Part shown: one piece after another, positions 6,677 through 58,181 of the stretch
How positions within the stretch are numbered: position 1 is the stretch's first letter
Layout of the letters: each line of letters begins with the position of its first letter
Assembly: GCA_050298595.1 (NCBI GenBank)
Contig: JBNKUM010000103.1
Location: forward strand, 2,150-66,149
DNA from: Gammaproteobacteria bacterium
GTDB lineage: Bacteria; Pseudomonadota; Gammaproteobacteria; GCA-001735895
Length of the DNA stretch: 64,000 nt
Direction: 5' to 3'
Program-made: the position numbers and the translations under genes
The notes under the pieces: model-generated
What the model saw: the letters and a program-made list of their open reading frames with translations, nothing else
Database searches by the model: none
What the model was told of the DNA's origin: nothing

Positions 6677-6684
6677 AACACAGT

Positions 6685-6892: not shown

Positions 6893-6984
6893 GCCGCGCT
6901 ATGGTGAGGGAATCAATAGAAAGTGTCAATGGTCGTGATACTCATGCCCGGGGAGTCATGTCCAGATACTGTGGCCGTAGCAGT

Positions 6985-14166: not shown

Positions 14167-14208
14167 AAAACCAGTTACCAGTATGCGGAGTAAACGACAG
14201 GACTCTGA

Positions 14209-15159: not shown

Positions 15160-15322
15160 ACTGCACTGAGGCTGGACTCTCAGTCAAGTCATTGGGAACA
15201 ACAGACAAATGAAGTGGATTCTGGGTCAAGTCATTGGCATGTTTATACAACCTGACCAGCGCATCTAATCAGTAGCATATGAGACTCCAGATAAAACAAT
15301 TAAGATATGAGGAATACATCTA

Positions 15323-17246: not shown

Positions 17247-17861
17247 ATGATAAAAAAATTTAAGTCTCTATATATATTACTAATATTTTTTTCAGCTAAT
17301 TCACATGCAGGTCTAATATCTGTAGATGCGTCAGCTGATATGACAAGCGGTTTTTCTTTAGCAACTAGCTTACTGCCAATTGGAACAAATGTATCAGCAG
17401 ATATTAAATTCGATGTTGGGGTTGGTACAATTGGAATATCAAATTTCACAGATGTTTCAGGTATTTTTTCATGGTTTGACACCACCTTTGGTTTACAAAC
17501 ATTTAGTGCTGACAATGCTCAAATAACGACGATTAATTCCGCTGGATGGTTTGACTTAAACTTTACGGGTCTTGGCCCAGTAATTAATGGAATTACTGCT
17601 AATAGTTTTAGTATATTGTTTGATATTGGCACTAATCCATTTATATCACCAGGTAGCACGACTGAGCTTTACGATCTTATTTTAAATAGCTCTGTTAGCG
17701 GTATGAGAGTGGGTGCTCTACAAGGGGGGCTTACTCATTACGGCAACCTAAAATCAAATGTTACTGGGTCAGTTACTGCCGTTCCAGAACCAAATATTAT
17801 TATATTATTTCTATCTGGATTGTTAGGTTTTTTTGAATTAAAAAGAAGCTCTAACAATTAA
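17247..17861 (+). CDS. PEP-CTERM sorting-domain protein
   Basis: Signal peptide (LLIFFSANSHA/GLI). The C-terminus VPEPNIIILFLSGLLGFFELKRSSNN gives a PEP motif, a TM segment and basic residues. A strong RBS (AAGGAAGGAG) precedes the ATG. Confidence 0.8.
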   Translation: MIKKFKSLYILLIFFSANSHAGLISVDASADMTSGFSLATSLLPIGTNVSADIKFDVGVGTIGISNFTDVSGIFSWFDTTFGLQTFSADNAQITTINSAGWFDLNFTGLGPVINGITANSFSILFDIGTNPFISPGSTTELYDLILNSSVSGMRVGALQGGLTHYGNLKSNVTGSVTAVPEPNIIILFLSGLLGFFELKRSSNN

Positions 17862-20697: not shown

Positions 20698-20712
20698 TTT
20701 CTCAACCAGTTT

Positions 20713-21537
20713 CTAACTGCAGTAATTCTCAAGGCAATGCAAAAATTCCTGCCAGATATTTTGCCAGCAACAGGCATGGTCAAACTTTTCCCACATCAAC
20801 ACTTTGGCATGGGGTTGTCTCTGCAGGACCGGCTCAACCAGATAGTAAGGCATATTTTTGTCATCTTTTCCGATCAGGTGGTACTGATGGACTTCAGAAT
20901 CCAGAGCAGGCATATGTGCAGGATTAAGTGAGCCTTCAAGAGGTGAATAGCCGTGATAATCAGTCCAGGCCTCTATATCCAGATTGCCAGCAATAGTAAC
21001 AACGGCCCTGGTTGCGCTGATACGTTCTGCCAACAGCATAGCCAGAGTACCTCCACCACTATGGCCAATCAGTACCACTTCACTGTAGCCACCTCGCCGC
21101 ATATAGTCTCGTAACACCCGCTGCATACTTTCCACAACTCGCACTGAATATCTGCCTGAAGTCCATAACTCCGGAGCACAGGGTGCAATCGTTGAAAACC
21201 CATGATAGCAGGGCCTGCCAAGATAAATGCTGGGCGTGCTGTCTATAGCCATTAGATTTAGCATCAAGGGATCCAACGGTGTTGGATCTGCGGCTATCAG
21301 GTGATTACCAATCCAGGGCTGTCCATCACCATCAAGATAAACATGTAACATGGGGTTGTTATCGGCGCCATGCTGGATATAGATCATATGCTGAAACTCA
21401 CTCCCCTGAACGATTTCCCTGGCAAACCCCTGCTTGCTTGCCTCAATATCCAGCAATCTGGATCGCGAGGTACACCCTTGCAGAATGATAAGCGTTATCA
21501 AACAAAATATTTTAATGGCATTCATCCTTTGTGACAT
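20713..21537 (-). CDS. Alpha/beta-hydrolase lipoprotein
   Basis: Lipobox LIILQGC. Nucleophile elbow LIGHSGGG. Confidence 0.65.
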   Translation of the reverse strand: MSQRMNAIKIFCLITLIILQGCTSRSRLLDIEASKQGFAREIVQGSEFQHMIYIQHGADNNPMLHVYLDGDGQPWIGNHLIAADPTPLDPLMLNLMAIDSTPSIYLGRPCYHGFSTIAPCAPELWTSGRYSVRVVESMQRVLRDYMRRGGYSEVVLIGHSGGGTLAMLLAERISATRAVVTIAGNLDIEAWTDYHGYSPLEGSLNPAHMPALDSEVHQYHLIGKDDKNMPYYLVEPVLQRQPHAKVLMWEKFDHACCWQNIWQEFLHCLENYCS

Positions 21538-21695
21538 GGTAAGTGATCCTGGTTTTTATGATGACCAACATTTCAACAGCATGTTAACTCTCAGCTGTGA
21601 AATCGTTCTATTATCCCGTTGCCATATTGCATCATGATCTCCAATCAGGTACCATTTTTTCACGTTAACGTATCCCCGACATAAATTAAGGATGA

Positions 21696-23885
21696 ATGAT
21701 GTCTCACAATCACTCAGTTAAATCACTTCTGTCATTTCTTCTCAGCTATCTTTATTCTGGTGTAATTCTGCTATTGCTGCTATTAAACACCGGATGTCAG
21801 TTACAGCCAACCACAGATAAAAGTCAGGCTCTGGTTGAAGCAGGGAAAAAAGATCCGAATAAGTTACTGGTTGTTGATTGCCTGTTACCTGCCCAGATCC
21901 GAAAATTGGGATCTAAAATGACATACCTGGCTCAACGTAGACCTATCAAAACCTCTGCACTAGATTGTGAAATACGTGGTGGGGAATACGTTGCCTATGA
22001 TCGGGCTGATTACAGAACAGCGTTAAATGTCTGGTTACCACGCGCCAAAGAAGGGGACAGTGAGGCGCAAACCTATGTCGGTGAAATTTTTGAAAAAGGC
22101 CTGGGCATTCAGGCAGATTATCAATCAGCCGCTGCCTGGTACAGCAAAGCTGCCGAACAGAACAACTCACGAGCACAGATCAATCTTGGTTTCCTGTATG
22201 AGAAAGGCCTGGGCGTTGAAAAGGATCTCTCAAAAGCACTGAACCTGTACCGCATGGCCTCAGGTCTAGCCGATGATTCATTACAGTTTAACTCAACCAT
22301 ACTGGCATCGGCCGAAACCAGGCAGCAGGTAGAAACACTTAAGAGAGAAGTAGAACAGCAAAAACTAGAATCGGAAAAGCTCAAAGCACAGCTACAAAAC
22401 ACCCGTGCACAGTTAAAAACACAAAAAAAAGATCTATCTACTGCTGAAAAGCGATTGCAAAGTTTGCGCAAGGAAATTAACAGCAAATCATCACAAAGCC
22501 CTACCCCAGCAGGAACTGAAAATCTGGCCAAACTAACCATAGAACTTGGGAAACAGGAGAGTGAGGTCAAGGCACAACGCAACAAAATTGCCAACCTTGA
22601 ACACAACCTTAAGCTTCAGCGCACAACGCTGGATAACCAACTGGCCGCCGAGCGCAAAAAGAATGAATCCTTAATGTCTGACCTTAAGACACAAAAAAAA
22701 CAGGTATCTTCACTCAACAAGAAGCTTGAAAAAGCACTTGAATCGCAACAGATTAATAAAGAGATAGAGGGCCCTACAATCGAAATCCTGGACCCCCCCA
22801 TCGCATTAATGCGAGGGCTTCCAAGCATCCGCTTAAGATCAGCCACAAAAGAAAGAATCATCGTCGGTAAAGTCGTTGCTCCAGCCGGCCTGCTATCTTT
22901 CACGGTTAACGACAATTCTGAGGAAATAGACACCTCAGGTATCTTCAATGTAACCATTCCCGTTGAACGTGACCAGGTCCCAGTAAAAATGGTCGCTGTT
23001 GACAACTACGGAAAAAAAGCAACGATTGAATTTATGATCATCCCTCAGACCAGGAATATCTATGTTAAAAGTGCAAAAGCAACCTCGCCATCGACGGCTT
23101 TCAACAAAACCCTTGCTGGAGAGGTAGATTTCGGTACTTACCATGCCCTGATCATCGGTAACAATACTTACAAAAACTTCCCAGGATTGGACACAGCCAT
23201 AAATGATGCTAGAGATGCAGAAAAGGTATTGCGTGATAAGTATGGTTTCTCGACCAGGTTACTTATTGATGCAAATCGATATGAGATACTTTCAGTGCTT
23301 AATGAGTTAAGAGATCAACTGACCGAGAAAGATAATCTGCTTATTTATTACGCCGGCCATGGGGAACTTGACCGTCCTAACACACGAGGACACTGGATAC
23401 CTGTCGATGCTGACCGTGAAAACTCTGCAAACTGGATATCTAATATATCCATCACGGACATACTCAATGCAATGAAAGCAAAACATATACTGGTTGTTGC
23501 TGATTCCTGCTATTCAGGATCCATGTCTCTCGCATCTGTACCAAGGCTTGACGCGGAACCCGAAGATGTTGACGCTAAAATTAAACTCAAGTGGTTGAAA
23601 GTGATGGCAAAAGTGCGTTCTCGTACCGTGTTGACATCAGGAGGACTACAACCTGTCTTAGACCAGGGAAGTGGTAACCATTCAGTATTTGCCAATGCGT
23701 TCCTCTCCACCTTAAAGAACAACGATGGAGTACTTGAAGCATACAAACTCTACCGGGAAGTATTTACTGAAGTGCGCCAATCCGCAGGTAAATATGGTGT
23801 AGACCAGCAGCCAGAATATTCCGCTATCAAACATGGTGGACATGAGGCTGGTGAGTTTATTTTTGTGCCCGTACTTAAACTATAG
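21696..23885 (+). CDS. Exported Sel1-repeat / coiled-coil / caspase-like (peptidase C14) protein
   Basis: Lipobox LLNTGC. Sel1 repeats (AQTYVGEIFEKGLGIQADYQSAAAWYSKAAEQNNSRAQINLGFLYEKGLGVEKD). About 170 aa of heptad-rich coiled coil. C-terminal caspase fold with a His (YYAGHGE) and Cys (VVADSCYSG) dyad. Confidence 0.85.
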   Translation: MMSHNHSVKSLLSFLLSYLYSGVILLLLLLNTGCQLQPTTDKSQALVEAGKKDPNKLLVVDCLLPAQIRKLGSKMTYLAQRRPIKTSALDCEIRGGEYVAYDRADYRTALNVWLPRAKEGDSEAQTYVGEIFEKGLGIQADYQSAAAWYSKAAEQNNSRAQINLGFLYEKGLGVEKDLSKALNLYRMASGLADDSLQFNSTILASAETRQQVETLKREVEQQKLESEKLKAQLQNTRAQLKTQKKDLSTAEKRLQSLRKEINSKSSQSPTPAGTENLAKLTIELGKQESEVKAQRNKIANLEHNLKLQRTTLDNQLAAERKKNESLMSDLKTQKKQVSSLNKKLEKALESQQINKEIEGPTIEILDPPIALMRGLPSIRLRSATKERIIVGKVVAPAGLLSFTVNDNSEEIDTSGIFNVTIPVERDQVPVKMVAVDNYGKKATIEFMIIPQTRNIYVKSAKATSPSTAFNKTLAGEVDFGTYHALIIGNNTYKNFPGLDTAINDARDAEKVLRDKYGFSTRLLIDANRYEILSVLNELRDQLTEKDNLLIYYAGHGELDRPNTRGHWIPVDADRENSANWISNISITDILNAMKAKHILVVADSCYSGSMSLASVPRLDAEPEDVDAKIKLKWLKVMAKVRSRTVLTSGGLQPVLDQGSGNHSVFANAFLSTLKNNDGVLEAYKLYREVFTEVRQSAGKYGVDQQPEYSAIKHGGHEAGEFIFVPVLKL

Positions 23886-23964
23886 TTTTATGGGGCTGAT
23901 TATATTAAATTTTAACAGGGCTAATCAGTAATACCTGTTGTTTCAGGAATAAAAAGGGATAGAT

Positions 23965-26853
23965 ATGAAAACTTTGGATATGGGGCTATGGAATGGCGGT
24001 AAATACACTTCAAATTTATGGAAGATTCAACGATGGACCCTACTTTTATTGATGCTGGCTGGTTTCTGGACTAGTACTACCCAGGCAAATGTTTCAATCA
24101 CCAGTATCACTCAAGATCCTGCCAACAATGTTTCCGTGGATGTGCTTATTACCTATCGGGTTACTGTTTCCTACCCCGGAGGGGTCGATAGTGGTGAAAG
24201 TATCGAAATCAATATCTATGATAGCGATAATAACGTGACATCAAGTTTTTCTGCTGAAAATACTTCGTCTTGTTTTGAAGAAGGTAGTATCTGGTGCGAC
24301 TCAAGCTATCCAGACTCGAATAGCGATACTTTTATAATAACCTGGACCCCTTCAACGCCCAGAACCTATAACCTCGATTTTACAGTAAGCTGTGTCTACA
24401 CTCCCGAATGTATTGGAGACTCACAATCAATTACGACTATTGTTGCTAATACAGACTTACCGCCCCAACCGCCGACTGCTAATGCTGGTTCCGACCAAAA
24501 CATTCTGGACACCGATAACAACGGACTGGAATCAGTCACTCTGGATGGCAGTGGCTCTACCGACCTGGATAATGACATCACCAATTACGAATGGTATGAC
24601 AACTTTGAGACTTTAATAGCTACTGGAGTAACACCCACTGTGGAATTTGGTCCTGGATACCACGACCTGACCCTTATAGTCACCGATTCCATGCAAAACA
24701 CATCGTCTGATACAGTATATATTTCTATCAGGAGCCCTGATTTGGCGGCTGATGCCGGTCCTGATCAGAACGTTACTGACTCTGATAACGACGGTATCGA
24801 GACAGTCACTCTCGATGCAAGTGGATCCACCATTCCGTATGGCGCAGATGTAAGCTACCGTTGGACTGAAGGAGAGCAGATAATTGCTACGGTCGAAAAC
24901 CCCACGGTTGACCTTGGGGTCGGAACTCACCTGATCACACTTAGAATCTATCAAGGTGAAGTCATATCAGATTCTAACGTTAATATTTCCGTGCAGGAAG
25001 CTGTCACCGCGATTGTAGGCGCTGCAGATGCCGGCCCAGATCAGACCGTTACAGACACCAATAACGACGGGATTGAAAGAGTTACTCTGGATGGCAGTGG
25101 TTCCAGCGTCGATGGATATCAAATAGAAAGCTACGAATGGTTTGAAAACGGTGAACCACTCGGCACTGGTGTAGAGCTCTCCGTAAACCTGGCGGTAGGT
25201 AGCCCTCACAGCATTAGACTGAGAGTTCTCTATGCAGGAGGTGAAGGAGAGCTAACTGATGACGTGACCATTACAGTACAGAAACCAGCAAGCTCGAATA
25301 ACGAAGCAACTATAGAAACAGTCTCTGGAGATAACCAGCGCCTGCCTGAGGGTGATACTTCAGATCCACTTTCTATCCGAGTCCTGGGGCCAGATGGTCA
25401 GCCATTAGAAGGTGTTACTATTACCTGGATAGTCATACCTGCTGATGCTGCAACATTAAGTAGCGATACAACAACAACTGATTCCAATGGTGGATCTAAT
25501 AATACAGTTAGTCTGACTGCCGAAAGAACTGCAAGCCCATTTCAAGTGACGGCTTCAATCCTTGAAGGCGCATCTGCCAGATTCCAGATCAATCCAATTG
25601 CCGGTATAAGCGGTTTGACTCAAGCTCAACGATCAATTGCTCAGGCTCTTGATAATGCCTGTCCTGCGTTACAGTCACTTTCGCGTAATTTGACCACCGA
25701 GGAACAAAGTCTGGTATCCACCTGTGACTATCTTTCAACTGTCTCAGACCAGGAAATCATCTCAGCTCTACAGCAATTTTTACCTGATGAAATTGCTGCA
25801 CAGGGCAGGAATTCAATATCTCTCGCCCGCACCAGAAATAAAAACATTCTTCTCCGTCTCAATGACTTACGCAGAGGCGCAAATGGCCTCAGTCTTGAAA
25901 ATATCTCTGTATCGATTCAGGGAGAAAAGCTACCCTCAATCCTGATTAGCGAACTCACTAAATCACAAAGAGGCGGAGGCGCATCAGCCGATTCAACTGA
26001 GCTAGCCAGCCGTTTCGGTGTATTTGCTAATGGTAACATCAGTATCGGAGACACCGAAACAACTGAGAATGCAGCAGGTTTCGACTTCGAGACCAAAGGA
26101 CTGACACTTGGTATCGATTACCGGTTTTCAGACCAGTTTGTACTTGGCGGGGCATTCAATTACATCTCCACTAATTCCGATTACATAAACAAATCAAGCA
26201 CACTGGATATCGATGGTTACAGCCTGTCTTTGTATGGCAGTTATTACCTGTCAGAGCAGATATTCGCTGATAGTATATTGAGCATTGGCCTGAACAATTA
26301 CGACAGCCAACGTGAATTTACCACGGGTGGAATTAATCATCATTTTAATGGAGATACTGACGGGACTGAATATGCATTGAGCCTTGGTGGCGGATACGAA
26401 TTTAATTATCAAAATCTCACCTTCGTTCCCCAGGCTCGAATTAATTATTTGCGTGTTAAAGCAGATAGTTACGATGAAACCTCATCAGGTTCAGGGCTGA
26501 ACCTGAATATTGGAGATCAGGATATCGAATCATTGATAACCTCTGTTAGCGGAAACATGTCACTAGCATACAGTACCCAGTATGGCGTTTTTATGCCATA
26601 CCTGTCTATTGAGTGGGAACATGAGTTTCAAAACGATAGCAGGGCCATCATTGCACGTTTTGTCAACGACCCCACTAAGACAAACTTCTCTGTTCTAACA
26701 GATGAGCCAGATCAGGACTATTTCTATGTGGGACTGGGCTTAACCGCTGCACTGGCAAAAGGAAGATCTGCTTTTCTGTATTATGAAAAACTGCTGGAAC
26801 ACTCAGATACCAGTCAATACACAATTACAGCTGGGTTCCGTCTTGAATTTTAG
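23965..26853 (+). CDS. Autotransporter with a PKD-like repeat and Ig-like passenger and a C-terminal beta-barrel translocator
   Basis: Three repeats of about 92 aa (xAGxDQxxxDxxNxGxExVTLDxSGS). An invasin/Big_1-like segment. The last 280 aa or so have alternating beta-strand pattern and end in RLEF (terminal aromatic). Confidence 0.85.
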   Translation: MKTLDMGLWNGGKYTSNLWKIQRWTLLLLMLAGFWTSTTQANVSITSITQDPANNVSVDVLITYRVTVSYPGGVDSGESIEINIYDSDNNVTSSFSAENTSSCFEEGSIWCDSSYPDSNSDTFIITWTPSTPRTYNLDFTVSCVYTPECIGDSQSITTIVANTDLPPQPPTANAGSDQNILDTDNNGLESVTLDGSGSTDLDNDITNYEWYDNFETLIATGVTPTVEFGPGYHDLTLIVTDSMQNTSSDTVYISIRSPDLAADAGPDQNVTDSDNDGIETVTLDASGSTIPYGADVSYRWTEGEQIIATVENPTVDLGVGTHLITLRIYQGEVISDSNVNISVQEAVTAIVGAADAGPDQTVTDTNNDGIERVTLDGSGSSVDGYQIESYEWFENGEPLGTGVELSVNLAVGSPHSIRLRVLYAGGEGELTDDVTITVQKPASSNNEATIETVSGDNQRLPEGDTSDPLSIRVLGPDGQPLEGVTITWIVIPADAATLSSDTTTTDSNGGSNNTVSLTAERTASPFQVTASILEGASARFQINPIAGISGLTQAQRSIAQALDNACPALQSLSRNLTTEEQSLVSTCDYLSTVSDQEIISALQQFLPDEIAAQGRNSISLARTRNKNILLRLNDLRRGANGLSLENISVSIQGEKLPSILISELTKSQRGGGASADSTELASRFGVFANGNISIGDTETTENAAGFDFETKGLTLGIDYRFSDQFVLGGAFNYISTNSDYINKSSTLDIDGYSLSLYGSYYLSEQIFADSILSIGLNNYDSQREFTTGGINHHFNGDTDGTEYALSLGGGYEFNYQNLTFVPQARINYLRVKADSYDETSSGSGLNLNIGDQDIESLITSVSGNMSLAYSTQYGVFMPYLSIEWEHEFQNDSRAIIARFVNDPTKTNFSVLTDEPDQDYFYVGLGLTAALAKGRSAFLYYEKLLEHSDTSQYTITAGFRLEF
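24472..25290 (+). repeat. Three tandem, diverged repeats of about 275 nt inside the autotransporter gene (PKD-like modules)
   Basis: Repeat starts are visible near 24478, 24748 and 25024: gctaatgctggttccgaccaaaac / gctgatgccggtcctgatcagaac / gcagatgccggcccagatcagacc. Confidence 0.75.
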
Positions 26854-31223: not shown

Positions 31224-31265
31224 TTACAAAACCGTTTACTTAAACAATTTTCAATGGAGAGGAAG

Positions 31266-31784
31266 ATGAAAAAAATTATTTGTTTGTTTATTTGTATGTT
31301 TGCAGGAAATGTATACGCTGGCCTTATTGGTGACACTGTACATATTGCCCACAATTGGTCAACTCTTGGCTCAGAAATTTATTCCCCAATAGATGTGCTA
31401 GTAGAAGACGGAACAGGAGATCTGGCTACCGTATCTCCCCATTATTCAGTTAATGTGGATGACCTATCAGTATTCGTGGACTTTAGCGATGATGCGGCTT
31501 GGTCTCCTGGGTTATTTAATGGTTTAGTCATAAGCAATATAGATACAATTTTGTCAGACTTTGTCGTATCAACAAACATGACAGGCTGGGTTGATTCAAT
31601 GTTTACATACAGTGCCGACGCTTTAATGTTCAATTGGAGTGGCCTGACTTTTGATAGTGACACTACATTTCAACTTAATTTTAATGATGGTAATTCTTCT
31701 CAAGTACCCGAACCTACATCGCTTGCATTGATTGGGTTAGGATTAGCTGGAATTGGTTTTTCAAGGAAAAAGAAAACGGCGTAA
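31266..31784 (+). CDS. PEP-CTERM sorting-domain protein
   Basis: MKKIICLFICMFAGNVYA/GLI signal peptide. C-terminus VPEPTSLALIGLGLAGIGFSRKKKTA. The ATG at 31266 follows GGAGAGG; the track start at 31254 is also possible. Confidence 0.8.
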   Translation: MKKIICLFICMFAGNVYAGLIGDTVHIAHNWSTLGSEIYSPIDVLVEDGTGDLATVSPHYSVNVDDLSVFVDFSDDAAWSPGLFNGLVISNIDTILSDFVVSTNMTGWVDSMFTYSADALMFNWSGLTFDSDTTFQLNFNDGNSSQVPEPTSLALIGLGLAGIGFSRKKKTA

Positions 31785-42202: not shown

Positions 42203-43066
42203 CTATTGATCAAATTGGTGACAGGCCAGACAAAGCGTTCCATCCTTTGCAGGTAGACGCAGTAACACTTCAAACTCGAGGCGCTGGTAAGAAATAGTCA
42301 GGTTCTGATCCGTATCCTTATTCAGCTCATCCAGACGTTTTTGCTTATCCCTTTGCACGACTTCGTTCCAGTCATGATCCTGATAAGCGATACCCTTTGC
42401 CAAATCCCTGTCCTGAACCTGCTGGGATGCTTGCTTAGTTTCTATGACACCTTTTTCGTGACTGCTATGACAGGTAACACAGAGGATTTTTTTACCATCC
42501 AGTGGCAATACAAGCTGCTGCTTCTGTTCTGTCTCATGTAGCTGTTGCAACATATCGTCATCTACTTCTACCAGATGATTGAAAGCATTCAGATGAGGCG
42601 ACTTCAGGTGGCAACCAATACATAACTTCTGTGGAGGGAGACGCAAATCCAGTTCTTCGAGTGTATAGGATCGGTCTCGCTCAGGCGTTTTGACATGACA
42701 AAACTGACATTGATCTTCTTTAATATCACCCTGCTCATCCAGTAGGATATGGATGTTATTACGCTGGTACTGTTTTTCGTCATGACACTGGTAACAGAAA
42801 TCACTTAGCTCTGGATAAGGCCCCTGAATAAAGAAGTTCGCATCTTTTTTGTCCACTTCTTCATATGGAATATCTGCAATATCCTTAATGCCATGACAGG
42901 TCTTACAATCTATCTGATCCTTATCATTCAGAAGGAAATTTTTCGGGATAGTCATAGCATCGGGGACAGCCACCTGCACAACATGATGTAATGGTGGCAG
43001 CTTATTATCGGCAGAAATAGCAAGGGGCAAAAATAATGATAGTAATATCGGTAGCTTCATCATCAC
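42203..43066 (-). CDS. Periplasmic hexaheme cytochrome c
   Basis: Signal peptide MMMKLPILLSLFLPLAIS/AD. CKTCH, CYQCH, CQFCH, CIGCH, CVTCH and CLACH. Confidence 0.85.
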   Translation of the reverse strand: MMMKLPILLSLFLPLAISADNKLPPLHHVVQVAVPDAMTIPKNFLLNDKDQIDCKTCHGIKDIADIPYEEVDKKDANFFIQGPYPELSDFCYQCHDEKQYQRNNIHILLDEQGDIKEDQCQFCHVKTPERDRSYTLEELDLRLPPQKLCIGCHLKSPHLNAFNHLVEVDDDMLQQLHETEQKQQLVLPLDGKKILCVTCHSSHEKGVIETKQASQQVQDRDLAKGIAYQDHDWNEVVQRDKQKRLDELNKDTDQNLTISYQRLEFEVLLRLPAKDGTLCLACHQFDQ

Positions 43067-44028
43067 ATCCCTGCCTGTATGGATTCACCATGGCTATGGC
43101 ATTGCTTACAATCGCCGGTAATCTGATGCAACCCTGACAATCCATTGCCGGTATCCAGATCTGACTGATCGGCGGTTACCGACATCTGATGGCACATCAC
43201 ACACAACTGTGCATTATTGGTTGCGGTATTATCTATGCTGTAGGATTTATTCCTGATTGCGGGATCAAGCCGGCTCAGACCCTTTTCTGAACTATCAATG
43301 ACCAGCCCGGCATTATTAGTCCCATGCATTGCATGACAATCGGTACATTCAACCACGGTCTGATATTCATAGCCTTCCCGCAATCCGGAGAAACTATGGC
43401 TACCGGTACCTGAGGTTTCGCCATGTTTGTCAACATATTTAAAGTAATCTTCACTGCCAATCAGTGCACTGGCGTAGTCAGCTGTAATATTAAAATCTGT
43501 CTGCTGATGATCGCGGTTATGACAACGTAAACAAAATTCAGAAACTGAGCTGTATTCTGAATACAGTCCATGCGCATCTGTAAAGCGAGTTAAATCTCGA
43601 TTATTATCGAATACACCATCCATATCCGAAGCCAGATGGCAGTCTATACATGCTTCATCCTTCATCTGTGCATCATTGCCAGTGATGAAACTGTGCGTAT
43701 GCAGCCCTGTCTGTATTGGCGAAGCTGTCAGATCAGAATCGTTATGGCAAATTAAACACTGACGTGCTTCTGAGGTACCGTTGCTACCATGGCAGCCAGT
43801 ACAGCTTGCATAGCCTTTGCTTTGTACGATTGAACGAATGCTATCAGCCTGTTGATGAATCAGATTCAAACCGTGGCAACTATCACACTCGGAAAGCCCC
43901 CAGGCCAGACCGCTGCCTCCATGTGATGAAGTTAATATTAGATTGCCACTTTGAGACGAGACCGTTTCTGTCTTATCTGAATCCACGCAACCCGCCAGCA
44001 ATAAAATACTCAGCAAAAGAATTCTCAT
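43063..44028 (-). CDS. Lipoprotein octaheme cytochrome c
   Basis: Start at the ATG at 44028 (ATGA overlap with the upstream stop) gives MRILLLSILLLAGC, a lipobox. Eight CXXCH motifs. Confidence 0.85.
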   Translation of the reverse strand: MRILLLSILLLAGCVDSDKTETVSSQSGNLILTSSHGGSGLAWGLSECDSCHGLNLIHQQADSIRSIVQSKGYASCTGCHGSNGTSEARQCLICHNDSDLTASPIQTGLHTHSFITGNDAQMKDEACIDCHLASDMDGVFDNNRDLTRFTDAHGLYSEYSSVSEFCLRCHNRDHQQTDFNITADYASALIGSEDYFKYVDKHGETSGTGSHSFSGLREGYEYQTVVECTDCHAMHGTNNAGLVIDSSEKGLSRLDPAIRNKSYSIDNTATNNAQLCVMCHQMSVTADQSDLDTGNGLSGLHQITGDCKQCHSHGESIQAGM

Positions 44029-44642
44029 GGTTTTGCTCTCCGGTGACAATCGGAGCAATACGACACATTATGACAACGTCCGCAGGACTGGGTATTGATG
44101 CGCGCATCTAAGCCATGAGCAATCAGGTAACCCGGTTGATGCTTGTTGTATTTCGTCGTGTCACGCTTGAAATGACAGTCAGTACAGAATGACATATCGA
44201 GGTGACAGGTCTGACACTGCCCATCATCCAGACGGGAGTCTTCTGCATGCTGATTGATGTAATCAAAGTCATGATCAACCGGCCAGATAGCAGTCTTATC
44301 GACATGACAAAGGTCGCACTTGAAAGCTGCTTTCTGTTTATCAACGTGACAATCGTGACAGATCGCTTCCATCGGTTCGTTGGAAATGGTAGTAATTAAT
44401 TTTATATCATCGGGCTTAACAACCTTATTAGCCCCAAAGGAATGACATAACAAACAGGGATCACCTTCCTGCTCCATCGCTTTGAAATGAATCTTATGCG
44501 GATAGAAAATATCAGGGCGATCATGTCGTTTTTGCCACCAGCTATCTTTTTTAGATGAGTCATTGTCAGTATCAACTGGAGTGTCTGCGGCAGACACCCA
44601 TGCTGCAAACAGTCCAGTAAGCACAAACAGTAATCTATTCAT
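44025..44642 (-). CDS. Periplasmic heptaheme cytochrome c (c3/c7-like)
   Basis: Start at 44642 gives MNRLLFVLTGLFAAWVSA/AD. Seven CXXCH. The FYPHKIHFKA...CLLCH arrangement resembles c3/c7-type heme units. Confidence 0.85.
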   Translation of the reverse strand: MNRLLFVLTGLFAAWVSAADTPVDTDNDSSKKDSWWQKRHDRPDIFYPHKIHFKAMEQEGDPCLLCHSFGANKVVKPDDIKLITTISNEPMEAICHDCHVDKQKAAFKCDLCHVDKTAIWPVDHDFDYINQHAEDSRLDDGQCQTCHLDMSFCTDCHFKRDTTKYNKHQPGYLIAHGLDARINTQSCGRCHNVSYCSDCHRRAKP

Positions 44643-45894
44643 CAGACCACCATTTGTTGGATGCATCAAACTGGTAACTGAGCTTTAATCCGAACTGATA
44701 CTCATCGTGTAAATGTGTATTCCAGATGCTAGACATTGAAAAGGTAAAATAAAGCCCCGAACCCAACATGCGCTCCACATTGGCTTCTACGCCCACGGCC
44801 TGATTACTACCAGTTAACCACTTATATTGAGATTGAATTGCGGCACCGAAGCGGGATTTCACCAGTGGTGAAAATGAGTAATTACTGTTTGCATAGAGTG
44901 AGATAAATTCATCTTGATCCAGCTGCAAATAGTCTATCTGTAACTGATACTCTCCACCTGTATATTCATGCACCTGTGATGCGAGAGATAATCCATAACC
45001 GCGTTTCCCATACTCACGTAATACCGTGCGCGCTTTTGCTATCCATTGCGTACTGGTGTTTTGCCTAAAGTAATAACTGCCCGTAAAAGCACTTTGGCGA
45101 CCCAATTCATATACCGAATAGAACTGTTGTGTGAAAGATAATGCTGGCTCAGTTAAGGTAAAGGTTTCATAGTCAAACTGAACTCTATCGGTTTCAGTAA
45201 TATCACTGAAAATCTTGAGCTGAACCTGTTCGGCATACTCTTCACTCATCAGATAAGTCGCATTAAGGCCCACAGCAAAATCATAGCTGGACGAATTGTG
45301 GATTTTTCCATCACCCGTAAAACCCAGGTTTAAACGTGTTTCATCATCTGCTTCATCGTTAATTTTCTGCACACCAAATCTGGCAATAGCTGTATCAAAA
45401 TAGACGACAGAAAATAATGGAGAAATGTTTATCTCCGAGAAGTGAAGATCCAAGCCATATAGAGCATCACCATGAATCGCACTGTAATCATCTACACGAG
45501 AAGGCTGACCGGCATATAAATTCAGTAGCACATTATCGTTTTTGGCTTTGATCAAAGCGCCATCCAGTGTGTACATGCCCAGACTGTCATAACGCTCCAT
45601 GCGCCCAATGCGATATGATTTAACTAAACCATCCAGCTGCTTTTCAAAGTACAGCTGATACAGGTTTTCTTCATTATCGTCACCCTGCCGTAGTGCAAAA
45701 CTCAAACCAGATTCAATGCCTCTTTGCTGATCAATGATTCTTATGTCTGCATATTCTTCGATAAAACCATTCTCATCAACCAGTCGATTTCCAGCCTGCA
45801 CTCGGCTTTCTAGTCGCCCATAGAAACCAGCCTGTACACTGTTCAGGGTGAGCAACAACATGAGTATTAATAACGTGCTGAAAAGGTCTTTCAA
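44635..45894 (-). CDS. Outer-membrane beta-barrel protein (putative porin of a porin-cytochrome complex)
   Basis: TTG start overlapping the upstream stop (TTGA). Signal peptide KDLFSTLLILMLLLTLNSVQA/G. About 400 aa of alternating hydrophobic/polar beta-strand pattern, no Cys and no heme motifs. Lies between cytochrome genes. Confidence 0.7.
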   Translation of the reverse strand: MKDLFSTLLILMLLLTLNSVQAGFYGRLESRVQAGNRLVDENGFIEEYADIRIIDQQRGIESGLSFALRQGDDNEENLYQLYFEKQLDGLVKSYRIGRMERYDSLGMYTLDGALIKAKNDNVLLNLYAGQPSRVDDYSAIHGDALYGLDLHFSEINISPLFSVVYFDTAIARFGVQKINDEADDETRLNLGFTGDGKIHNSSSYDFAVGLNATYLMSEEYAEQVQLKIFSDITETDRVQFDYETFTLTEPALSFTQQFYSVYELGRQSAFTGSYYFRQNTSTQWIAKARTVLREYGKRGYGLSLASQVHEYTGGEYQLQIDYLQLDQDEFISLYANSNYSFSPLVKSRFGAAIQSQYKWLTGSNQAVGVEANVERMLGSGLYFTFSMSSIWNTHLHDEYQFGLKLSYQFDASNKWWSDE

Positions 45895-46142
45895 AGCCTT
45901 TTATTGCTATGGGAATCCGCTGCGAATTGTTGTTTGTCACCCTTTCTCAAAACAGCCCATGACACCAGCGCTATCAGAGCAACTGCACAGCTACCACAGG
46001 TATTACAGCGACCCTCCCTGGTCACTGTACAGTTTGTTGACATGGCTATATGGGTCACAGCGAGAGAAGCACCCGCAACCCATGGCGCCAGCAGTTTCAG
46101 CTGTTTTGTGGTTTTCGAGTGTTTACTTTCTGACCTGTCCAT
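45891..46142 (-). CDS. Small Cys-rich membrane protein (83 aa), function unknown
   Basis: The ORF exactly fills the gap between the 984-aa cytochrome gene (stop 46145-47) and the barrel gene (its stop overlaps that start). Contains C-x9-C-x2-C-x2-C followed by a TM segment (AVALIALVSWAVL). Confidence 0.5.
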   Translation of the reverse strand: MDRSESKHSKTTKQLKLLAPWVAGASLAVTHIAMSTNCTVTREGRCNTCGSCAVALIALVSWAVLRKGDKQQFAADSHSNKRL

Positions 46143-46144
46143 GC

Positions 46145-49099
46145 TCAACCTCTAAATGGACTCAGTCTATTTTTTCTGACCAGTGTCAGTAACATGATAT
46201 TTAGAAAGATAAAGAACAGCCCAATACTGCCACCACTACGACTCACTGCTGATCCACTAGACCCTGAAGTCGCCGTTGATCCAGCAGTCTTAGCCGCAAC
46301 TTCAGTCGTTGTGTAGTAGCTAAAGTGGCTGGTTTTAAACACGATATAGCCATCCTGCATATCTGTTGCTGCTCGTACTAGCTGGATATCTGCAGGATCA
46401 ACTTTTGTCCAGGACTCACCATCTATAGAGGTAATGACATTGACCTGATCAGCAGAGCTACTACTGCCTCTATAAGGTAGTTTTACCCATACCGGAGCAG
46501 CAAATGTTGCTAATGTCGAGCCAGACTGCTTTTTGATTTTCAGTGCAAAAACTTCTGCTCCTGTCGATAAACTACCAAACCCGGCTGCAGCGGCTTTGGT
46601 CATTTCAGGGGTATCTCCCAGCTCGACCTGTAGTACATAACCGGCGAAATCATCATCACCGGATATGACCGCAACCTGTCGAATAGACTCATCACCCTGT
46701 CTAACCTGAAACATATGAGCCTTACTATTCCTGAACTGATCTGCCAGCTGAGCAGCATCATCAGCATTCGAAATGCCTAAGCCGGACATACCCTCTTCAA
46801 TAGTCGCAACATTGGTATAGGTTTTTGCTATTGAGGTAGCTTCTACAGCGATTGCAGAACGTAGCGCCGACATAGAGGGATTAACAATACTATCGGCCAG
46901 AATATCGGAGACATTGGCTGTTACCACACCTGTTTCAGCATCCATTTTCATATAAGGAGCATCAAACGTTACAATGCCCTCAGTAACCAGACGTGGATCA
47001 GGAACTGTGGTAACCACATAGCTGTTATTTTTTCCGAAGATTCCATCATCAGATACCAGCGCACTAATGGTTGTTCCATCAGACTTATAGTTATGACATT
47101 GCTCACATTGCACCGATGATACTGCGGGTCTTGTATTGTGTGATAACAGGTACTGGTTGATTTCTGACCACACCAGAATAGCATCGGAATTTTCTATACC
47201 GCTGATTTTAAACACCTTGTCATAAGCCTGTTTCAGACCTTTAAAACCTTCATAACTATCCGGGTCATTAAACCTGACACTACCATGTGAAAATCCTGCA
47301 GTCACCTCACCTAGTACCGCCCCTGTTTCAGGGTCAACTATCTGGCCTCCGGTCACGGTGCCATGGCTATCCTTAACCGGTTGAAAGACACTGTTTCGTT
47401 GAGTTCTATTGAGAACGATCCCACTGTTTTTATCCTTCCAGTAATATCGTGCCTTTGGTTTGTAAGGTACGATTGTTTTATCGCCATTTTCAGCTTCACG
47501 ATAACGATATACAGGATCGAAAGATACTCCTTTTATTGCCTTGCCTGTGATATGGCAGGCCTGACAACTCACCACGTCCAGATGCGTTTGAGTAATCTGT
47601 TCCAGAGTACTTTGAGGGTAACCGGACATGTCACCATTTAAAGTCCAGACCTTCTTATGCGCAGTCAACATGTCTGCATCACCCGATGGATTTGCCAATT
47701 CTGCAGCCTGTGGCGATTGCTCGTGACAGTATTCACAGGATTTGGCATTGGGGTTGTAATCCATATCATTATGTACATCCATATCAGAGTTCCCTTTCAG
47801 AAAATCATGACTGGCATCTACATCAGCACTGGCTGAAGGTGGATTAAAATAATTACGCGCATGGCAGGCATTACAGTTTTCTATGGTGCGCTCTTCTCCA
47901 TTATCTTCACGCCAGATTTTCCCTTTATGTACATCGTCCTGATAATCCTCTACCAACACACCTGTTTCTTCTTCTGCAATGGCTTCAGCCCCTTCACCAA
48001 AACCATAAAATCCTCGACGTGAGTTACTGGTCAAATGACATATCATACAGTTGTCATTCGCAGGGAAACGTAACATTGGAATCTCAGCTTTTCCATCGCT
48101 ATTAAAAGCATCGGAATTCCAGGTGACATGGGGCTTTAAATTTCCATTTTTATCTTCCTTATAGAGCAGTTCTTCAGGTGTAATAATTCCATCAGCCGGT
48201 ACTGCTGTTCCAGACATATGATCGAAAGATGCCTTATCTTCACGATCAAATGACAGCAGGGTTTTATCCAGTGACTCATCATCGCTAAGATTTAGATTCA
48301 ATATTTCTAGGATGGTGGAATTCGCTTCACGAAAATGTCCCTGACTGATTAACGCGGTTATACGCATAGTCCTCAACATAGTAGAGGCAGCTCCTGTCAC
48401 CTCAAGCTCTGGATCTACAATCTTCAATGCTGTGATATCAACATGACATAACAAACAGTCATTTTCCACCACACCAGATTTTTTCCAGTCCCACTGACTG
48501 ACTACCGAACTTGCTGCAATATTATTATTTTCATCGGTGCCTCGGTTGTAATATTCTCCATCAAATTCCGTCACCGTAGCTGGATCAACTTCATCGAAAC
48601 GATTTCCATTTCGATCTTTTTCCATCCAGCCTCCGCCTGAATGACAATAGGCGCAACCCTTAACCATACCGGGAGTTCCAAGATCAGCAAAATCATGAGG
48701 ATTAGTATTTGATTTTTTTGCCTGCCAGGATGGATTATTACCCCCCATACAGTTGTAACCACCTGCATAACCAGGAGAAATCAATAATGAGATGCCATGC
48801 TTTTCTCCATAGCTATCGCTCATTTCATCGCGACCAGCTTCTATATGGAAAGCATGAGTGATGACATTGTAATCATGACAACCGCCACAGGTTTGTTTTG
48901 AGCTATAGGGCTGACCGCTGTCCAGAACGTTATTGCCCTCTTCATCCAGAATGGGGAAAGCAGGTTTATGAATATAAGGTTCATCATAAACATTTGCCTG
49001 TACAGGTCCTGCAAATGCAAAAAACACATACACGGTAATAAACCGTAGCAGAGTATTGTTAATAGCTTTAAATACTGCGTCATGGGTTGGTAAAGTCAT
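46145..49099 (-). CDS. Large secreted octaheme cytochrome c with a non-heme C-terminal domain and a GlyGly-CTERM-like sorting tail
   Basis: Signal peptide (...FFAFAGPVQA/NV). Eight widely spaced CXXCH in the first 665 aa or so, then about 270 aa without heme motifs. The tail is SGSSGSAVSRSGGSIGLFFIFLNIMLLTLVRKNR. Confidence 0.85.
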   Translation of the reverse strand: MTLPTHDAVFKAINNTLLRFITVYVFFAFAGPVQANVYDEPYIHKPAFPILDEEGNNVLDSGQPYSSKQTCGGCHDYNVITHAFHIEAGRDEMSDSYGEKHGISLLISPGYAGGYNCMGGNNPSWQAKKSNTNPHDFADLGTPGMVKGCAYCHSGGGWMEKDRNGNRFDEVDPATVTEFDGEYYNRGTDENNNIAASSVVSQWDWKKSGVVENDCLLCHVDITALKIVDPELEVTGAASTMLRTMRITALISQGHFREANSTILEILNLNLSDDESLDKTLLSFDREDKASFDHMSGTAVPADGIITPEELLYKEDKNGNLKPHVTWNSDAFNSDGKAEIPMLRFPANDNCMICHLTSNSRRGFYGFGEGAEAIAEEETGVLVEDYQDDVHKGKIWREDNGEERTIENCNACHARNYFNPPSASADVDASHDFLKGNSDMDVHNDMDYNPNAKSCEYCHEQSPQAAELANPSGDADMLTAHKKVWTLNGDMSGYPQSTLEQITQTHLDVVSCQACHITGKAIKGVSFDPVYRYREAENGDKTIVPYKPKARYYWKDKNSGIVLNRTQRNSVFQPVKDSHGTVTGGQIVDPETGAVLGEVTAGFSHGSVRFNDPDSYEGFKGLKQAYDKVFKISGIENSDAILVWSEINQYLLSHNTRPAVSSVQCEQCHNYKSDGTTISALVSDDGIFGKNNSYVVTTVPDPRLVTEGIVTFDAPYMKMDAETGVVTANVSDILADSIVNPSMSALRSAIAVEATSIAKTYTNVATIEEGMSGLGISNADDAAQLADQFRNSKAHMFQVRQGDESIRQVAVISGDDDFAGYVLQVELGDTPEMTKAAAAGFGSLSTGAEVFALKIKKQSGSTLATFAAPVWVKLPYRGSSSSADQVNVITSIDGESWTKVDPADIQLVRAATDMQDGYIVFKTSHFSYYTTTEVAAKTAGSTATSGSSGSAVSRSGGSIGLFFIFLNIMLLTLVRKNRLSPFRG

Positions 49100-56135: not shown

Positions 56136-58181
56136 ATGAAAACACAGACTCAAAAAAACAAACTCGGCTGGATGTCATTACTGACAGTGCTAGCCCTGTT
56201 TTTTTCAGTAGGAAGTCAAGCCGCAGGATTACTCAAGCCGGCCAACAGCGGATTACCCGATCTACAGATCCGCGAACATCATGTCGATGTAGTGATCGAT
56301 AACGGTTACATCACAACCCAGATTGATCAAATATTCCATAATCCCAATGCACAACAGCTGGAAGCGATTTATTCATTTCCAGTCCCGGAGAAAGCGGCCG
56401 TGGGTGAATTCACCTACTGGATTGATGGTAAGCCGATCACTGCCGAAGTGGTCGAGAAGCAAAAGGCGAAACAGATCTATCAACAGGAAAAGCAGGCCGG
56501 GCGCGAAGCTGCACTGGTAGAAAAGGATGTCTATAAAACCTTCGATATCAGCGTGACTCCGGTATTGCCCAGCAGCGATGTTCATATTCGCCTGGTGTAT
56601 ATCCAGTCTGCTGATATCGATCACAGTATCGGCCGTTATGTTTATCCATTAGAAGAAGGTGGTGTGGACGAAGAGAAACTCAGCTTCTGGACACGCAATG
56701 AAGCGGTCACCGAAAAATTCAGCTTCAACATGAGACTTCGTTCGGGTTACCCACTGGATAGCATCCGCCTGCCTAAACACCCTCAGGCGGTGATCAACTC
56801 TAACGGTGATCAGGAATGGGAAGTATCTCTGGTCAATCAACAGCAACTGCAGGAAGAAGGTTCTGTGAGCAATGGCACTACTGTAGCCACGCTGGATCAG
56901 GACATAGTCGTTTACTGGCGCCTGAAAGAAAACCTGCCCGGCACGCTGGATATGGTGAGTTATCGTGAAGAAGGTCAATCACAGGGTACCTTCATGCTCA
57001 CGCTAACCCCCGGCGACGATCTACCGGTGATGACACAGGGTGGAGACTGGATATTTGTACTTGATGTGTCAGGTTCGATGTCGGGTAAATATGCAACCCT
57101 CGCTCAGGGCGTGCGTCAGGCGGTACAGAAATTACGTCCACAGGATCGCTTCCGCATTGTCGTTTTCAACGAGTCAGCTTCAGATATCAGCAATGGTTTT
57201 CAGTTTGCCTCACCGGAAAACATCAAGCACATGCTAAGCACCATGGAAAACTATAAACCCGGTGGTGGCACCAACCTGTATTCAGGATTAGAAAAGGCGA
57301 TGACAAAACTTGATGCCGACCGCTCTGCTTCTATCATCCTGGTCACCGATGGCGTTGCCAATGTCGGCGTTACCGAAAAAAAGGCCTTTATCAAACTACT
57401 GAAAAAGAATGATATCCGCCTGTTCACCTTTATCATGGGCAATAGCGCGAACCGTCCTATGCTTGAGGAGATGACCGATGTTTCGCAGGGCTTTGCGGTT
57501 TCTGTTTCCAATGCAGATGACATTGTCGGCAAGATCATGCAGGCCAGCAGCAAGATGACTCATATGGCGCTGCACGATGTGAAGCTGGATATCGATGGCG
57601 TATCGGTTAAACAAATCACCCCGGAACACATCGGCAGCCTGTATCGCGGCCAGCAACTGGTGCTATTCGGTCATTATTTTAAAGCCGGTACAGCAACGGT
57701 TACCTTAAGCGGCAAGGTCGGTAGTGAAAAACGGATTTACAGCACGCAGGTGAATTTTCCCGATACCGCCGTTGATCACCCTGAACTGGAACGTCTATGG
57801 GCCTATGGCTTTATCGAACACCTACAATCGCAGCTAGACTATTTCGGTGCTGACGCAGATATCGAACAGGCGATTACCGATGTTGCTATCCAGTACGGCC
57901 TGGTGACTGACTATACCTCTATGCTGGTAGTGAGAGATGAAGTGTTTCAGCAATTGAATATCCAGCGTAGCAATAAACAGCGAGTAGAAAAGGAACAGCA
58001 GGCACGTCAGGCCCGAGCACAGCAGCCGCTTACCAGCAAGCGTGTCGATAGTCAGCAACCGATGTTTACTAAACCGAGATCGAGCCTGGGTGGAGGAAGT
58101 GGAGCGATGGATATGTGGCTGATGACAGCACTACTGCTGTTACTGGCTACGGGATATATTAGGCGCCGTAACCTGAATTGA
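56136..58181 (+). CDS. VIT plus von Willebrand factor A domain surface protein with a GlyGly-CTERM-like tail
   Basis: Signal peptide. VIT-like N-terminus. vWA MIDAS (IFVLDVSGSMSG). The tail is SSLGGGSGAMDMWLMTALLLLLATGYIRRRN. Confidence 0.85.
   Translation: MKTQTQKNKLGWMSLLTVLALFFSVGSQAAGLLKPANSGLPDLQIREHHVDVVIDNGYITTQIDQIFHNPNAQQLEAIYSFPVPEKAAVGEFTYWIDGKPITAEVVEKQKAKQIYQQEKQAGREAALVEKDVYKTFDISVTPVLPSSDVHIRLVYIQSADIDHSIGRYVYPLEEGGVDEEKLSFWTRNEAVTEKFSFNMRLRSGYPLDSIRLPKHPQAVINSNGDQEWEVSLVNQQQLQEEGSVSNGTTVATLDQDIVVYWRLKENLPGTLDMVSYREEGQSQGTFMLTLTPGDDLPVMTQGGDWIFVLDVSGSMSGKYATLAQGVRQAVQKLRPQDRFRIVVFNESASDISNGFQFASPENIKHMLSTMENYKPGGGTNLYSGLEKAMTKLDADRSASIILVTDGVANVGVTEKKAFIKLLKKNDIRLFTFIMGNSANRPMLEEMTDVSQGFAVSVSNADDIVGKIMQASSKMTHMALHDVKLDIDGVSVKQITPEHIGSLYRGQQLVLFGHYFKAGTATVTLSGKVGSEKRIYSTQVNFPDTAVDHPELERLWAYGFIEHLQSQLDYFGADADIEQAITDVAIQYGLVTDYTSMLVVRDEVFQQLNIQRSNKQRVEKEQQARQARAQQPLTSKRVDSQQPMFTKPRSSLGGGSGAMDMWLMTALLLLLATGYIRRRNLN

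Follow-up and report, generated by a model that had tools for sequence, protein, structure and literature searches.

How would a multihaem cytochrome that carries no lipobox be attached to the surface of a Gram-negative cell? This question is raised by a gene for an octahaem c-type cytochrome at positions 46145 to 49099 of a stretch of gammaproteobacterial DNA of 64,000 nucleotides (contig JBNKUM010000103.1 of assembly GCA_050298595.1; this whole stretch is referred to as the window). MtrC, OmcA and OmcB, the well-characterised cytochromes that act on the outer surface in extracellular electron transfer (EET), are N-terminal lipoproteins. For the protein considered here, a first-pass annotation made from the sequence alone had suggested attachment to the surface by way of a GlyGly-CTERM-like tail, the type of tail that is processed by rhombosortase.

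Our analysis points to a modified answer, namely that the octahaem cytochrome is the outermost component of an electron conduit and would be tethered non-covalently, via a self-cleaved MAIN domain, on a rhombosortase-type lipid anchor. We assign this reading a probability of about 0.5. Processing, localisation and the direction of electron flow are inferred here from the architecture of the protein, its conservation, matches to family models, the gene context and the linkage of relatives to rhombosortase.

A conserved family of octahaem cytochromes

The gene and the N-terminal part of its product comprise the following features:

46145..49099 (-): octahaem c-type cytochrome gene of the MCA0424 family, 984 aa, with an ATG start and the stop codon included
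48995..49099 (-): putative Sec signal peptide, aa 1-35, cut after VQA, judged by eye and by the xQA|N site that homologues share
47030..48994 (-): haem-binding region, aa 36-690, with eight CXXCH motifs, the C117-M118 pair and eight conserved non-motif histidines

The open reading frame (ORF) has 984 codons and, as had been stated, appears to begin with a signal peptide: by eye, the N-terminus MTLPTHDAVFKAINNTLLRFITVYVFFAFAGPVQA|NVYDEP resembles a Sec signal peptide, whose end before the mature protein reads …LLRFITVYVFFAFAGPVQA|NVYDEP, the (L/A/V)QA|N site is conserved in homologues, and AlphaFold2 (AF2) puts a helix at aa 8-29. The eight widely spaced CXXCH motifs described earlier are all present; they start at residues 71, 149, 215, 351, 409, 455, 512 and 665, at a spacing of 46-153 aa, and are conserved across homologues. 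All eight haem sites are invariant among 62 aligned homologues and 99-100% conserved among 174, alignment gaps being the only exceptions. In most relatives, site 1 is CX4CH instead of CXXCH, so that a plain CXXCH count yields seven. Members of the family, with lengths of 900-1050 aa, number at least 344. It is confirmed that the ORF is not a chance one and that it belongs to a conserved family of octahaem cytochromes.

C117 is the sole cysteine outside the haem motifs, so that the N-terminal region has none that could belong to a lipobox. The first cysteine, C71, lies within haem motif 1, an MtrC-type N-terminal lipobox is lacking, and the absence of a lipobox noted in the first-pass annotation is thus borne out.

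Two NCBI metagenome-assembled genomes (MAGs) contain the window's cytochrome itself, as do four DNA runs from a single 2025 study, with weaker matches in salt-marsh and sediment metagenomes; none of the RNA runs searched for the gene contains it. Carriers of the family include Sedimenticola, Thiodiazotropha (lucinid symbionts), an Escarpia endosymbiont, Beggiatoaceae, an Oleiphilaceae isolate and Methylococcales.

The haem region had been likened to MtrC/UndA-type proteins or to the enzymatic octahaems Otr, ONR and MccA, and neither comparison was upheld. Pfam PF22113 (MtrC/MtrF domain II/IV) is matched just above its threshold (37 bits vs 30) and over residues 349-521 only, which hold four haems. 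TIGR04315 (octahaem tetrathionate reductase) reaches 33.6 bits vs a cut-off of 375, over residues 350-546 with E = 2e-8. When the family profile was searched against the PDB, no cytochrome chain was found and the sole match, at E = 0.57, was an unrelated gp41 construct; likewise, no cytochrome was among the 50 best matches listed by Foldseek for the AF2 model. In addition to the motif histidines, eight further histidines (residues 44, 85, 391, 431, 481, 506, 605 and 654) are conserved in 89-100% of the 174 sequences. Eight such histidines for eight haems would fit bis-His ligation of all eight haems, and therefore electron transfer rather than catalysis.

Within the segment GGYNCMGGNNP (residues 113-123, nt ~48731-48763), the unpaired C117 and M118 are invariant in 174/174 family members. 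They could provide a haem ligand or a redox-active site.

A C-terminal tail of the GlyGly-CTERM type

The C-terminal end of the protein consists of one feature:

46166..46237 (-): GlyGly-CTERM sorting domain, aa 955-978, with the SGGSIG motif, the LFFIFLNIMLLTLV helix and the RKNR basic cluster

The tail reads SRSGGSIG-LFFIFLNIMLLTLV-RKNR as quoted in the first-pass annotation, which had left out the six residues LSPFRG that follow before the stop codon. It is tripartite, with a Gly/Ser motif, a helix and a basic cluster; the motif is free of cysteine, and the GlyGly-CTERM motif is defined without cysteine (Haft and Varghese 2011, PMC3237569). Strong hydropathy is confined to residues 955-977, and AF2 predicts a helix at 959-977. 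The proposed likeness to GlyGly-CTERM holds, as TIGR03501 scores 16.8, 17.7 and 18.9 bits on the isolated tail (last 26-54 residues) vs a cut-off of 15.5 and the tail recurs in the branch of the sulfur oxidisers. Most orthologues from sulfur-oxidising Gammaproteobacteria end with an S/G-rich…GG(G) stretch, a hydrophobic helix and an R/K cluster, and the SGG(G) motif ahead of the helix is strictly conserved. We consider this conservation within the lineage to be stronger evidence than the TIGR03501 score.

Three orthologues (L012, L071 and P0041) carry JDVT-CTERM in place of GlyGly-CTERM, with the pattern GGC…DPLLP…RRR, and keep the HFS motif described below; in two of them NF033191 (JDVT-CTERM) scores 43-45 bits vs 27, and the third was assigned by eye. 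No obvious CPBP/MrtJ-type protease was seen near the JDVT-tailed orthologues among ORFs of at least 100 aa within ~3 kb on each side, inspected by eye only. One Sedimenticola clade terminates in CxLPESCGN, and the methanotroph orthologues end directly after the last beta strand, without GlyGly-CTERM. Because the GlyGly tail is exchanged for JDVT-CTERM or lost in other lineages, it behaves as a modular sorting tag.

A MAIN-like domain between the haems and the tail

Residues ~670-940 carry no haem motif, in agreement with the haem-free C-terminal region of about 270 aa recognised before. What had been overlooked is that this region ends in a MAIN/GAIN-like domain with an HFS motif:

46292..46741 (-): MAIN/GAIN-B/ZU5-like beta-sandwich, aa 787-936, from AF2, Foldseek and profile search
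46319..46327 (-): HFS motif, H925-F926-S927, placed in the turn that joins the final two strands, with the predicted autoproteolytic site F926|S927
46238..46291 (-): disordered linker rich in Ser, Gly, Thr and Ala, aa 937-954, with a predicted local distance difference test score (pLDDT) <50 over 937-959

The AF2 model of the full-length cytochrome has a mean pLDDT of 83 and a predicted template modelling score (pTM) of 0.81, and a separate model of residues 690-940 has a pLDDT of 88. The strands assigned by DSSP at 918-925 and 928-933 flank the HFS motif. For both models, the best Foldseek matches are the ZU5 domains of ankyrins (4d8o, 3kbu, 6m3r) and the GAIN domains of adhesion G-protein-coupled receptors (8vy2, 8ikj, 8vti). 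The ZU5 and GAIN folds are both known for autoproteolysis. In ZU5-like domains, autocleavage at HF|S and SF|S sits directly before the last strand.

A profile of the domain (residues 787-936) was searched against 1.84 billion representative proteins and gave 86 matches, including, beyond the cytochromes, ~25 haem-free proteins of 197-7583 aa with library-wide E values of 5e-5 to 9e-4. All full-length domains from non-cytochrome proteins (22/22) end in …GY(V/L)xFxTxHFSxY, and these copies often precede a sortase-type signal or accompany SLH domains. Other searches were less informative: Pfam gave no match on the C-terminal region in 19 family members, profile searches of the PDB with the whole family, with the C-terminal 250 aa and with the merged MAIN-like alignment gave nothing relevant, and a protein search with a Firmicutes copy of the domain returned one unannotated match with no Pfam label.

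The MAIN domain has been described as a GAIN-like domain that is enriched in Bacillota and is placed between passenger domains and the surface anchor (Brogan and Rudner, bioRxiv 2026, 10.64898/2026.05.12.724683). Cleavage occurs at the F|S bond of HFS, where Edman degradation located it, and the products remain together; nearly all experimentally tested MAIN domains self-cleave at HF|S, and the authors propose a force-dependent release (10.64898/2026.05.12.724683). The preprint makes no mention of cytochromes, GlyGly-CTERM, rhombosortase or Proteobacteria (10.64898/2026.05.12.724683). The cytochrome has the same order of signal peptide, passenger, beta-sandwich and surface anchor. To judge from its sequence, the predicted C-terminal beta-sandwich matches the autoproteolytic MAIN domain of Gram-positive surface proteins, with YfkN as a comparison by description only.

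Among the anchored family sequences, H[FL]S is present in ~130/143 and occurs with every anchor type (GlyGly, JDVT and two-helix). Neither of the two anchor-less clades (30 sequences) has it, with an HFT in L063 as the one exception. The latter, from a Methylococcaceae MAG, is an anchor-less orthologue with a long Lys-rich C-terminal extension that is probably amphipathic.

Rhombosortase in relatives

In Candidatus Venteria ishoeyi, a gene for a rhombosortase of 191 aa (TIGR03902, 127 bits vs a cut-off of 84) shares the strand of the orthologous cytochrome and is located 190 bp upstream of it. On the MAG contig L097, the orthologous operon is followed, 455 bp downstream of its last gene, by the rhombosortase homologue P0167, which is 76% identical to a protein named rhombosortase by NCBI; the three operon proteins encoded there share 60%, 40% and 41% identity with those of the window. 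Furthermore, the NCBI-named rhombosortase P0205 (JAKITT010000047) and the tail-bearing cytochrome locus L032 (JAKITT010000069) belong to the same Polarisedimenticolaceae MAG, JAKITT01. A tendency of single-client rhombosortases to adjoin their client has been reported (Haft and Varghese 2011, PMC3237569). The adjacency is not general, however, since tblastn with the Venteria rhombosortase against 86 loci matched Venteria itself and no other.

Contigs that might hold the rhombosortase of the source genome were chosen by way of homologues of the Venteria enzyme. The five that were checked (those of P0133, P0142, P0207, P0147 and P0137) were rejected, and this genome's copy was not located: in tetranucleotide composition they correlate with the window at 0.47-0.70, vs 0.87-0.94 for the window's own chunks, which assigns them to other organisms.

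In the window, a VIT-VWA protein (56136-58181, +) ends in SSLGGGSGAMDMWLMTALLLLLATGYIRRRNLN, that is SSLGGGSG, a helix and RRR, with no sortase gene after it. It resembles the 'marine proteobacterial sortase target' family with a score under the cut-off, and its GlyGly-like tail is likewise sub-threshold (13.9 vs 19.7). Its counterpart in L006 ends in LPQTA, a helix and RRR, and is followed by a sortase gene. The same swap of a sortase signal for a GlyGly tail has been described (Haft and Varghese 2011, PMC3237569). The VIT-VWA protein is probably a second rhombosortase client in the source genome, and the swap of its tail is a hint, if an indirect one, that this genome has a rhombosortase.

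Surface location of the Methylococcus capsulatus orthologue

The orthologue of Methylococcus capsulatus is 43% identical over residues 36-931, with conserved synteny. In M. capsulatus str. Texas (L082), the match is closely preceded, at 9769 and 9659, by the sigma-54 and integration host factor (IHF) strings published for the region upstream of MCA0424, which identifies the orthologue as MCA0424. The 94-kDa ORF3 with seven motifs of Bergmann et al. 1999 is presumably the same protein. The cytochrome gene is tandem-duplicated in this strain (MCA0424 and MCA0426; L082 10001-15814), and both copies are without anchor and HFS.

The M. capsulatus operon has eleven genes, eight of them for cytochromes, with 58 haem motifs, and mass spectrometry of the fraction extracted from the surface of cells grown under copper limitation revealed both MCA0424 and MCA0426 (Larsen and Karlsen 2016, PMC4831470). 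M. capsulatus also reduces iron oxides and yields current via outer-membrane cytochromes, the knockout tested in that case being MCA0421, not MCA0424. Given the presence of MCA0424 in the surface fraction, it seems reasonable to place the window's cytochrome at the cell surface as well.

The attachment to the surface via rhombosortase proposed in the first-pass annotation is thus favoured by the tail, by the rhombosortase linkage in relatives and by MCA0424, and is to be amended in one respect: in view of the MAIN/GAIN-like domain with its HFS motif, the body of the cytochrome probably carries no covalent lipid of its own.

The operon and a putative electron conduit

The cytochrome is gene 1 of a nine-gene operon, in which the genes overlap by 4-71 bases or are 2 bases apart and which encodes 53 CXXCH motifs in total. 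The gene order is retained in distant relatives. The further genes are, in the direction of transcription:

45891..46142 (-): small protein of 83 aa, two hydrophobic segments flanking C-x8-C-x2-C-x2-C, overlapping the stop codon of the cytochrome
44635..45861 (-): secreted haem-free protein of 408 aa, putative outer-membrane porin, position conserved in all loci examined
44025..44666 (-): secreted heptahaem cytochrome of 213 aa
43063..44028 (-): octahaem lipoprotein of 321 aa, lipobox LLAG|C
42203..43063 (-): hexahaem cytochrome of 286 aa
39952..42243 (-): NapH-like membrane polyferredoxin fused to a multihaem domain, 763 aa
39177..39959 (-): trihaem cytochrome of 260 aa
36517..39174 (-): NHL beta-propeller fused to a 14-haem domain, 885 aa, last gene of the operon

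The nine genes look like a trans-envelope electron conduit. The 408-aa protein begins with a signal peptide, is devoid of cysteine motifs and would be the outer-membrane porin of the conduit; as it has no family match in NCBIfam and Pfam scans, its beta-barrel is a conjecture. The NapH-like fusion is the likely link of the operon to the quinone pool and an unusual candidate for an inner-membrane quinol-to-cytochrome module. Its C-terminal multihaem domain holds 7 CXXCH motifs together with CX3CH and CX4CH variants.

The small protein (70-83 aa) is also found between the cytochrome and the putative porin in L004, L005, L006, L010 and L033, with the pattern N-C-(T/S)-x6-C-x2-C-G-S-C; NCBIfam and Pfam scans gave no family match for the 83-aa protein. 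In the Venteria operon (L005), RhuM/P22_AR_N, GmrSD and HEPN genes stand after the cytochrome (13043-15697) and a VapBC pair stands before the NapH-like gene (19870-20570), both apparently inserted.

Proposed mechanism and alternative explanations

The cytochrome would consist, in this order, of a Sec signal peptide, the octahaem domain, the MAIN beta-sandwich, a flexible linker and GlyGly-CTERM. After Sec export, the haems would be attached while the C-terminal helix retains the protein in the inner membrane. The MAIN domain would undergo self-cleavage at F926|S927, both pieces staying together because the last strand, S927-E933, remains in the sandwich. Rhombosortase would cut at the SGG motif, near G957, and the new C-terminus would, by analogy to VesB, be joined to a glycerophosphoethanolamine lipid. 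The complex would then be moved to the cell surface, which in Vibrio is accomplished by type II secretion (through the T2SS). There, the octahaem body would be held non-covalently on the lipid-anchored peptide S927-G957 of ~31 residues, which would make the cytochrome releasable. Electrons would pass between the NapH-like quinol module in the inner membrane, the periplasmic multihaem cytochromes with the putative porin, and the surface cytochromes, and would be exchanged between this conduit and extracellular minerals, electrodes or partner cells.

A number of observations weigh against this scheme. The structural likeness to GAIN and ZU5 is modest, with E values of 2e-3 to 0.4 and TM scores of 0.3-0.5 (~0.5 on ZU5). 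HFS is lacking in 13 anchored orthologues (~9%), among which Venteria has HFG, and the correlation of HFS with an anchor goes back to two or three independent transitions. Regarding the tail, the TIGR03501 score is marginal and, given that the scan of the full-length cytochrome listed no match, the margin is thin; several orthologous tails are at or under the cut-off, and that of Venteria has no TIGR03501 match despite the adjoining rhombosortase. The six last residues extend beyond the basic cluster, and Deltaproteobacterial orthologues carry a two-helix tail, which is possibly a permanent anchor in the inner membrane. Among all ORFs of at least 150 aa in the 64-kb window, there is no rhombosortase or T2SS gene. 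Finally, the evidence for a surface location stems from an orthologue of 43% identity without tail and without HFS, and the porin was assigned by position only.

Some of these observations would also be expected if HFS were merely a structural element of a stalk domain without autoproteolysis, in which case the cytochrome itself would be covalently lipid-anchored after the action of rhombosortase. GlyGly-CTERM, rhombosortase and the surface evidence apply equally to this explanation, and the anchored orthologues without HFS, including the Venteria protein next to its rhombosortase, speak for it. We regard it as rather unlikely nonetheless, as none of the 22 domain copies from non-cytochrome proteins departs from HFS, and as this motif is located in the canonical turn before the last strand and is the site of self-cleavage in nearly all MAIN domains that were tested.

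Others bear on the tail, which could be a plain C-terminal transmembrane helix with a cytoplasmic basic cluster that is not processed by rhombosortase, the cytochrome staying periplasmic. The marginal TIGR03501 score that is missing in the full-length scan, the lack of rhombosortase and T2SS genes in the window and the Deltaproteobacterial two-helix C-terminus, which resembles a permanent anchor, would agree with such an arrangement, and the lipoprotein cytochrome of the operon could serve as the surface partner. This is unlikely, in our view, considering that rhombosortase adjoins the orthologue or its operon in two genomes, that SGG(G) before the helix is strictly conserved and that the tail is exchanged for JDVT-CTERM, another cleaved sorting signal; in addition, MCA0424 is found in the surface fraction and the MAIN architecture is typical of surface-displayed proteins. 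An enzymatic function, i.e. a reductase or oxidase of a sulfur or nitrogen compound like Otr, ONR or MccA, might be suspected from the weak TIGR04315 match, from the invariant C117-M118 pair and from the hosts, which are mostly sulfur oxidisers and methanotrophs. It is highly improbable: the TIGR04315 score is far under its cut-off, no PDB relative was found by profile or among the listed fold matches, the eight conserved non-motif histidines equal the number of haems and fit ligation of the bis-His type throughout, and the gene sits inside a putative porin-plus-cytochrome operon.

Comparison with known systems

The non-covalent tether thus preferred combines elements of several known systems. 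MCA0424 and MCA0426 belong to the copper-repressed MCA0424-0434 operon (PMC4831470; Ward 2004, PMC517821), in which, as in the window, the cytochrome is the first gene of a multi-cytochrome operon; they differ in that they end after the last beta strand, lack both GlyGly-CTERM and HFS, and form a tandem duplicate. For VesB of Vibrio cholerae, rhombosortase cleavage, modification with glycerophosphoethanolamine and T2SS-dependent surface display have been shown (Gadwal 2018, PMC6219818). The cytochrome shares with the VesB route (PMC6219818; PMC3237569) the signal peptide, a tripartite tail over the TIGR03501 cut-off and, in relatives, an adjoining rhombosortase, whereas its cargo is a multihaem cytochrome and a domain of the autoproteolytic type lies between cargo and tail. 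With MAIN proteins such as YfkN of Bacillus subtilis (10.64898/2026.05.12.724683), it has the architecture in common, as well as sequence likeness to the HFS domains that are anchored by sortase or SLH. The host, however, is gammaproteobacterial, anchoring is by GlyGly-CTERM (by JDVT-CTERM or a two-helix tail in relatives) and not by sortase or SLH, and the passenger is a redox protein instead of a hydrolase, adhesin or toxin.

MtrC, OmcA and UndA of Shewanella and the OmcB/Pcc clusters of Geobacter are comparable in that the cytochrome is proposed to form the extracellular end of a putative porin-cytochrome conduit and matches PF22113 over four haems. MtrC, OmcA and UndA contain ten or eleven haems in a four-domain fold, however, while the present protein has eight haems, no lipobox and C-terminal anchoring. 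The TIGR04315 family also has eight haems and shows weak local similarity over residues 350-546, but the score is 33.6 vs 375 bits, the protein of the window is twice as long and its gene context is different.

The Uet cluster of Tenderiales, PCC3 and the DFE clusters of D. ferrophilus were rejected as the same system because of their different gene content, and so was the anode module of Methylobacter, which is MtoAB-like and not this operon. In a paper on EET in Desulfobacterota, none of the features looked for was found. The founding paper on GlyGly-CTERM contains neither the word 'cytochrome' nor 'heme' (PMC3237569), and no publication was found that links the two: 'GlyGly-CTERM' and 'cytochrome' occur together in four papers, though in no title or abstract, and 'rhombosortase' and 'multiheme' occur together in none. 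Each of the modules, i.e. the multihaem EET cytochrome, GlyGly-CTERM and MAIN, is known; a description of their combination was not found.

Other features of the window

Two small proteins at 17247-17861 (+) and 31254-31784 (+) carry PEP-CTERM (TIGR02595, 19.3 and 28.7 bits vs 16), so that an exosortase system is probably present in the source organism as well. A cobalamin salvage and transport cluster (cobS, cobC, cobT, cobU, cobQ, btuF, btuD and btuC) occupies positions 1-8729 of the window. Its G+C content is 52-58%, vs ~36-50% in the rest of the window, and from this contrast it may have been acquired horizontally. Finally, consecutive genes at 19042-26853 (+) encode a Ser/Thr kinase, an EACC1-associated caspase-like protein of 729 aa and an autotransporter of 962 aa with an M36-like passenger.

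Conclusion

The family is widespread in uncultured sulfur-oxidising Gammaproteobacteria, including tubeworm symbionts and large sulfur bacteria, and also occurs in methanotrophs; electron exchange is largely unexplored in these groups. It points to attachment by the C-terminus, through a rhombosortase-type lipid anchor and a self-cleaving MAIN domain. We tentatively suggest, with some doubt, that this is the first redox protein on an autoproteolytic tether of the GAIN type and the first link of MAIN to the C-terminal sorting of Gram-negative bacteria (rhombosortase/GlyGly-CTERM and JDVT-CTERM), with the octahaem body as a releasable carrier that is held by one strand on a lipid-anchored peptide of ~31 residues.

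If true, MAIN, newly described from hydrolases and adhesins of Gram-positive bacteria, would be extended to redox proteins of Gram-negative ones, and rhombosortase would gain a new class of clients. This raises the questions of whether surface cytochromes are shed deliberately and whether such shedding accounts for the 'free' extracellular cytochromes in sediments and biofilms. The cytochrome would then be a releasable extracellular electron carrier, which sulfur-oxidising sediment bacteria and symbionts could shed onto minerals or partner cells under force, and such force-driven shedding could also let the cells let go of a surface.

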